Shown in pieces: positions 50,504-51,851 of a DNA stretch of 51,851 bases. The position numbers and the translations under genes were made by a program. Position 1 is the first letter of the stretch. Each line of letters opens with the position of its first letter. Origin of the DNA: a virus (Duplodnaviria; Heunggongvirae; Uroviricota; Caudoviricetes); IMG/VR virus record IMGVR_UViG_2923307698_000007, positions 1-51,851 of that record, one strand, 5' to 3'. The notes under the pieces are model-generated. The model was not told the DNA's origin. It worked only from the letters and a program-made list of their open reading frames with translations, and did no database searches.

Positions 50504-50597
50504 TTTTATTTTGACTAATAATGACCTTCTTATACTAATTCATTGATAGTCAAAGAGATTTTAAATATACAACTTATTCACCTTAAGTGCACCGACC
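50504..50597. other. attL: Prophage-host junction (attL-type) with P-prime arm-type site and core-like TTCTTATACTAA
   Basis: gactaataatgacc arm-type-like site then ttcttatactaa, 94 bp between int stop and torS start. Confidence 0.4.
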
Positions 50598-51851
50598 GTG
50601 AATTTAACCCTGACCCGAAGACTCTGGATGGGCTTTGCCCTGATGGCGCTGTTAACCCTGACCAGTACCCTGGTGGGATGGTACAACCTGCGCTTTATCA
50701 GCCAGGTGGAAAAAGACAACACTCAGGCATTGATTCCTACCATGAATATGGCGCGCCAGTTGAGCGAAGCCAGCGCCTGGGAACTTTTCGCCGCGCAGAA
50801 CCTGACCAGTGCCGATAACGAAAAGATGTGGCAGGCGCAGGGGCGAATGCTCACCGCACAAAGCCTGAAGATTAATGCGTTGCTGCAAGCGTTACGGGAA
50901 CAAGGTTTTGATACCACCGCTATTGAACAACAGGAGCAGGAGATCTCCCGTTCATTACGTCAGCAAGGGGAACTGGTGGGGCGGCGTCTGCAACTACGCC
51001 AGCAACAACGGCAACTCAGTCAGCAGATAGTCGCTGCCGCCGATGAGATCGCACGCCTGGCGCAAGGTCAGGCGAATAATGCGACAACTTCCGCTGGAGC
51101 GACCCAGGCCGGGATTTACGATTTGATCGAACAAGATCAGCGTCAGGCTGCTGAAAGTGCACTCGATCGGCTGATTGATATCGATCTTGAGTATGTTAAC
51201 CAGATGAATGAACTGCGCCTTAGCGCTCTGCGGGTGCAGCAAATGGTGATGAATCTGGGGCTGGAGCAGATCCAGAAAAATGCACCAACGCTGGAAAAGC
51301 AGCTCAATAATGCGGTGAAAATTCTGCAACGTCGGCAAATACGCATTGAAGATCCGGGTGTTCGTGCGCAAGTCGCAACAACGTTAACTACCGTTAGCCA
51401 ATATAGCGATTTGCTGGCGCTGTATCAGCAGGACAGTGAAATCAGCAATCACCTACAAACTCTCGCACAAAATAACATCGCCCAGTTCGCGCAGTTTAGT
51501 AGCGAAGTCAGTCAGCTGGTCGACACCATTGAGCTGCGTAATCAGCACGGACTGGCGCATCTGGAAAAAGCCAGTGCACGCGGGCAATACAGCCTGTTAT
51601 TGCTGGGGATGGTTTCACTTTGCGCACCGATTCTGATCCTTTGGCGCGTGGTTTATCGCTCAGTCACGCGTCCACTTGCCGAACAAACGCAGGCGCTGCA
51701 ACGGCTGCTGGACGGTGATATTGACTCCCCTTTCCCGGAAACCGCTGGCGTACGGGAGCTGGATACCATCGGGCGGCTGATGGATGCGTTTCGCAGCAAT
51801 GTTCATGCACTGAATCGCCACCGCGTACAGCTGAATTGCAGGAACTGGTGA
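50598..51851 (+). CDS. torS: Host sensor kinase TorS, N-terminal periplasmic/HAMP region, ending at an in-frame stop at the window edge
   Basis: [33 protein letters not shown]... matches recalled E. coli TorS; only the first 417 codons present; GTG start. Confidence 0.8.

Follow-up and report, generated by a model that had tools for sequence, protein, structure and literature searches.

A predicted strain-specific torS pseudogene beside a prophage at the HK022 attachment site of Escherichia coli

Prophages at the torS-torT site and the integration module of the window

Phage HK022 is said to have been found by Yagil et al. in 1989 to integrate at attB(HK022), between torS and torT. Integration of HK022 removes both native torS promoters, and torS is then expressed more strongly, from a promoter within the prophage (Carey et al. 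2019, eLife 8:e49081; PMC6814406). The same study gives a 73-bp distance from the int stop to the crossover for HK022, with an outward promoter driving torS in the P' region, and places the functional start of torS at an ATG ten codons past the annotated GTG (position 50628 in the DNA analyzed here). When TorS is present in excess over TorT it acts as a phosphatase of TorR and abolishes the aerobic, bet-hedging expression of torCAD, and in cells without TorS the activation of torCAD is impossible (PMC6814406). The torS-torT site is also used by prophage Gally of LF82 (AIEC) (PMC9928086) and by Stx1a phages of O26/O103 (LC744179-84; PMC10042803).

The stretch of DNA analyzed here, referred to as the window, is 51,851 nt long, and its final genes are, in order, xis, int and a torS open reading frame. 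The following features make up the prophage end and its junction with host DNA:

49234-49452, plus strand: xis, encoding an excisionase of 72 aa (Pfam Exc, E=4e-41)
49430-50503, plus strand: int, encoding an HK022-type tyrosine integrase of 357 aa (Pfam Arm-DNA-bind_1, Phage_int_SAM_1 and Phage_integrase)
50504-50576, no strand: P' arm, phage DNA from the int stop to the crossover, 73 bp, with 66/73 positions as in HK022
50577-50583, no strand: att core, the 7-bp overlap (crossover) TTCACCT, common to HK022 attP, K-12 attB and the window
50584-50590, no strand: host core arm B, TAAGTGC, the start of host DNA (AAAGTGC in K-12, TAAGTGC in JNE132847)

An earlier, sequence-only reading of the window had placed a prophage immediately upstream of torS, with 94 bp between the int stop and the torS start codon. 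Both statements held. int ends at 50503 and the annotated GTG of torS is at 50598, leaving a gap of 94 nt (50504-50597), and an HK022-type module is joined to host DNA at attB(HK022). The int gene points outward, toward torS, and is the last prophage gene on that side; its product belongs to the lambda family of integrases, has an arm-binding N-domain and is accompanied by Xis (Pfam). The DNA of the xis-int-attP segment (49200-50587) is 95.8% identical to that of phage HK022 (X51962, AF069308), as against only ~77% for lambda, 434 and HK97.

This Int/Xis/attP module is what the prophage shares with HK022 at attB(HK022) as studied by Carey et al. (2019; PMC6814406), whereas the remainder of the prophage is unlike HK022 and the P' arm differs from it at 7/73 positions. 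Furthermore, a truncated torS downstream of the prophage, as found in the window, was not reported in that work. A similar picture was obtained for Gally, the NRG 857C prophage and the O26/O103 Stx1a phages: these prophages share the torS-proximal junction with the window and have 95-97% identity to it over int-attP, but the cargo and immunity regions differ and torS mostly has its full 914 aa. An Int protein identical to that of the window adjoins torS in many public genomes, and in several assemblies its neighbor is an intact 914-aa torS. The identical Int was also encountered at another chromosomal site (loci L004 and L009, ~11141-11170), beside allantoin-cluster-like genes. The junction there reads CAACTTA followed directly by CTGAACTAAAGAGTG, so that Int may be using a secondary attachment site whose overlap is not the same.

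The int-torS junction and transcription of torS

The junction was mapped by comparing the window with HK022 attP (L014), K-12 (L002) and JNE132847 (L015). The window is homologous to HK022 attP as far as 50587, and from 50570 on it is homologous to the empty torS-torT spacer of K-12. The last 25 bp of the P' arm are identical to HK022; they include the phage arm CAACTTA (50570-50576), which ends on a phage-specific A at 50576. On the other side of the overlap, the T at 50584 is a host-allele base that is present in the unoccupied attB of JNE132847 (L015 2229-2249), while the equivalent position is A in both HK022 attP and K-12 attB. On this comparison the T is a polymorphism of the host lineage and helps to delimit the crossover. 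Because the overlap TTCACCT is bracketed by the phage-specific base at 50576 and the host-lineage base at 50584, it is delimited, and strand exchange would be confined to these 7 bp if the prophage's own attP resembles that of HK022 at the position equivalent to 50584. The core of the junction agrees with the HK022 core reportedly defined by Yagil et al. 1989 and with the account given by Carey et al. (2019). The junction sits exactly at the HK022 attB of K-12, within the 82 bp that separate torS from torT in E. coli, and the earlier proposal of an attachment site in the region upstream of torS is thus confirmed by the three-way comparison.

The position of the prophage is a published, common arrangement that was already known. 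The int-torS junction is present in 193 of 5,426 complete E. coli genomes (3.6%), not far from the ~5% that has been published, and the P' arm is identical in the window and in the six torS lysogen loci that were read (L003, L006, L007, L008 and L010 among them). Among the features that mark prophage-driven re-wiring of torS, the window has a prophage at attB(HK022), an outward int as its last gene and a conserved P' region. With the prophage integrated in the torS-torT spacer, by what would be site-specific recombination at HK022 attB, the native torS promoters would be displaced. By analogy with HK022, torS mRNA would still be made from phage DNA, with promoter activity predicted for P'. A scan for consensus promoters returned one weak sigma-70-like match, TCGACA-18-AATAAT (50493-50522), which equals chance expectation.

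The 28-bp torS deletion and its predicted product

The following features lie within torS:

50598-51851, plus strand: truncated torS ORF, as given in the ORF list, with 417 aa if counted from the annotated GTG and 407 aa if counted from the ATG at 50628
51628, plus strand: private T>C substitution (L344P), the sole change relative to JNE132847 torS over nt 1-1224
51822-51833, plus strand: deletion junction with the single remaining repeat copy CGCGTACAGCTG, where the references have CAC[CGCGAACAGCTGGCGGCGCAGGTCAAAG]CGCGTACAGCTG
51825-51851, plus strand: out-of-frame tail VQLNCRNW and premature TGA (51849-51851), read from the sequence and the ORF list
51848-51850, plus strand: GTG in the native reading frame (Val427), which shares bases with the TGA as GTGA, read from the sequence as a speculative re-initiation point

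A block of 28 bp, CGCGAACAGCTGGCGGCGCAGGTCAAAG, which torS has in K-12 MG1655, in bR_120 and in JNE132847 (the closest allele), is absent from the window. Alignment to K-12 MG1655 and bR_120 contains this single 28-bp gap, and the flanks are identical, down to the final 18 nt of the window; the reference reading is CAC[CGCGAACAGCTGGCGGCGCAGGTCAAAG]CGCGTACAGCTGAATTG, of which the bracketed 28 bp are absent. They correspond to torS nt 1225-1252 counted from the GTG (a derived position of ~1054927-1054954 in NC_000913.3), and with them native codons 410-418 (914-aa numbering) are lost, together with one base, the first, of codon 419. The deletion starts at codon 410 when counted from the GTG and at codon 400 when the ATG at 50628 is used.

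The sequence-only reading had suspected a small indel and frameshift near codon 407. The frameshift stood up on alignment, torS being out of frame relative to every reference examined, but the lesion proved to be a repeat-bounded deletion of 28 bp at codon 410 and not a change of 1-2 bp. The string AELQELV, which that reading had given as the continuation of native TorS, is indeed encoded in the adjacent frame (51830-51850), and JNE132847 has the native sequence. Within the window, there is no compensating +1/-2 change by which the frame would be recovered ahead of the TGA. Recovery of the native frame would need a -1 shift. A programmed frameshift was considered and rejected, as 51825-51849 contains no slippery heptamer.

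The deletion is bounded by a 12-mer direct repeat (CGCGaACAGCTG versus CGCGtACAGCTG, 11/12 matching): the deleted block opens with the 12-mer, a near-copy of it comes directly after the block, and the copy retained in the window is the distal one, which carries the T. A repeat-bounded gap with the distal copy retained points to slipped-strand or microhomology-mediated deletion, and the 28 bp would most likely have been lost by replication slippage or microhomology between the imperfect 12-bp repeats.

The same repeat would also be the place for an artefact of assembly or consensus, for example a collapse between near-identical 12-mers, in which case torS would be intact in the organism. The gap does fall exactly between two such 12-mers, no other genome shows it, and the same window has a possible homopolymer +1 in gene J. 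However, a repeat of 12 bp is far below assembler k-mer or read length, so that collapse is not expected, and the usual errors of long reads are homopolymer indels of 1-2 nt rather than losses of 28 nt. The retained distal variant (T) is what a clean slippage product would be expected to show. In addition, when the 3' 11.8 kb is aligned to L003 (CP055219.1), the nearest prophage relative, the stretch before the junction shows 22 mismatches and is free of gaps, which argues for an assembly without pervasive indel errors. We consider an artefact unlikely, and the deletion, as inferred from the assembled sequence, is very probably real in the organism.

As had been noted from the letters, torS runs into a stop at the window edge: the TGA at 51849-51851 is the last three bases. 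Being the final codon of the window, the stop might appear to be a product of the window cut only. The coincidence is explained, however, by trimming of the window at gene-call boundaries at both ends, the shortened torS being the last gene called; likewise, the first three bases of the window (cta, 1-3), which lie inside the prophage, are the stop codon of a tail-fibre (tail-fibre-C) gene on the minus strand. Moreover, the TGA is in frame in the real sequence, and the 18 nt past the deletion match reference torS exactly in a shifted register. The chance that the stop is created by the cut is negligible, and we treat this explanation as refuted.

The frame shifts after R409, leaving 409 native residues and 8 aberrant ones (VQLNCRNW) before the TGA. 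In the window ORF, the TorS_sensor_domain (PF21689; residues 46-316, E=2e-90) and HAMP (PF00672; 352-403) were detected, and the Pfam search returned no domain past HAMP. The 914-aa reference TorS carries HisKA at 443-508, HATPase_c at 557-663, a receiver (Response_reg) at 685-792 and HPt at 827-905. Thus the sensor and HAMP are present in the window ORF, whereas its stop at residue 417 means that HisKA, HATPase_c, receiver and HPt do not occur with them in one polypeptide, and the ORF is predicted to encode a truncated pseudogene product rather than a functional TorS. The predicted product keeps TM1, the periplasmic TorT-binding sensor domain, TM2 (with L344P) and HAMP, and has lost the His that accepts phosphate along with the ATPase, receiver and HPt domains. 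Because a protein without the phosphotransfer domains should have no kinase or phosphatase action, truncated TorS would neither phosphorylate nor dephosphorylate TorR, which would stay unphosphorylated; TMAO induction of torCAD would be lost, giving a Tor-null phenotype. The observed junction anatomy, deletion, domain loss and allele rarity are best explained by a torS pseudogene that is specific to this strain, a lysogen at the HK022 site, an explanation in which we have high confidence.

It is also conceivable that torS has been split rather than killed. The stop overlaps an in-frame GTG (GTGA), an AGGA lies 4 nt before this GTG (51840-51843), and in reference TorS all four catalytic domains are downstream, with HisKA from residue 443. 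Re-initiation at GTGA could give a soluble HisKA-HATPase-REC-HPt core that would signal to TorR without TorT or TMAO, possibly offsetting the aerobic shut-off of torCAD imposed by the prophage. The idea is drawn from a sequence pattern, however. The AGGA spacing is short, the DNA past the window may hold further lesions, no precedent was found for a functional split TorS, and the co-occurring L344P suggests decay and not re-tooling, making a split kinase highly improbable. Very unlikely, too, is that the lesion is a response of the host to over-expression of torS by the prophage and not neutral decay. Excess TorS being a phosphatase of TorR, selection might favor loss of the cytoplasmic half of TorS, and re-initiation at GTGA might then provide a sensor-less core that frees torCAD from TorT, TMAO and the prophage.

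If, as we favor, torS is simply a pseudogene, the strain would be annotated as an HK022-site lysogen with a predicted non-functional Tor sensor, and its TorCAD-dependent TMAO respiration would presumably be non-inducible. Since TorS is predicted to be non-functional, the published influence of the prophage over torS expression would be without a functional target here. The locus would represent one natural case in which torS decays behind a prophage by which its transcription is rewired, and it would be of wider importance only if a survey showed tor lesions to be enriched in lysogens.

Allele rarity, other tor lesions and the prophage body

The torS deletion is private and strain-specific. 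No complete E. coli genome spans the junction: a 72-nt junction query matched 5,410 genomes, none of them past query position 54, and no record among the complete E. coli genomes covered at least 80% of the query. The exact junction string gave zero matches in genome_contigs, metagenome_contigs and viral_contigs, and the exact truncated TorS protein, from either start, is not on record. The nearest torS allele is that of JNE132847 (NZ_AP028094.1), at a site without a prophage. Over torS nt 1-1224 the window differs from it only by T1031C, the change that results in L344P, 200 nt upstream of the deletion, and none of the complete E. coli genomes matched 51350-51660 at 100%. L344P falls in a hydrophobic stretch that separates the sensor from HAMP and is presumably TM2. 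Over 1.25 kb, the deletion and L344P are the only changes relative to JNE132847, with zero silent ones. As both changes would be damaging and none is silent, torS may already have been released from selection; such a pattern would be expected once selection on a gene has ceased, but two events do not suffice for proof.

Truncated TorS proteins on record include one of 546 aa in complete genomes of Shigella dysenteriae and others of 570 aa and 366 aa in E. coli. These Shigella and E. coli torS pseudogenes resemble the window ORF in keeping the sensor and HAMP and in ending prematurely, but they have other lesions and break points, and none carries the 28-bp deletion or VQLNCRNW. Given these other truncated alleles, decay of torS is not unusual, and both the prophage insertion and the torS deletion are real, yet ordinary kinds of event. 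A deletion hotspot was considered on account of protein P0007, which is also broken after R409. This candidate was rejected, as the contig concerned (L027, 4185-4507) enters an unrelated, AT-rich EPSP-synthase-like gene and is probably a chimeric metagenome join.

Several other lysogen loci showed tor changes of their own. L010 has a 1-bp deletion at torS nt 2718, within the last 10 codons, and the gene is uncalled there; L012 has a 1-bp insertion at torS nt 2735, also within the last 10 codons, and its torS is extended to 924 aa. The CP148275.1 locus (L006, the same as L013), from a dog isolate, has an intact 914-aa torS. In NZ_CP148275.1 (L013 1993-8527) a truncated prophage at the HK022 site runs into torA as a fusion, torA is annotated as over-long, and torT, torR and torC are missing, so that this is another tor-locus lesion beside an HK022-site prophage.

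The prophage itself is a mosaic lambdoid element and is stx-negative. In the late genes, identity is 98.4% to O111:H8 prophages and ~96% to the backbones of Stx1a/Stx2 phages. Its identification as an Stx phage was rejected, as the interval from Q (31643-32131) to the SASA esterase (28244-30094) has no stx ORFs. The prophage has one tRNA (31254-31329), and the layout from Q through the tRNA and TerB/DUF3927 to the SASA (nanS-p-like) esterase (28244-32131) is that of an Stx phage without stx. The J gene (tail-tip/host-specificity; 2316-5838, minus strand) is split into overlapping ORFs of 733 aa and 465 aa by an extra C in a C-run at ~3702, as compared with the intact 1159-aa gpJ of 95NR1; either the prophage is defective or the homopolymer was misread in sequencing. 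The antirepressor-like ORF (7402-8448, minus strand) is intact at 348 aa, and in the 95NR1 prophage, which is otherwise 98% identical, the antirepressor has an annotated frameshift at the point that corresponds to window position 7753.
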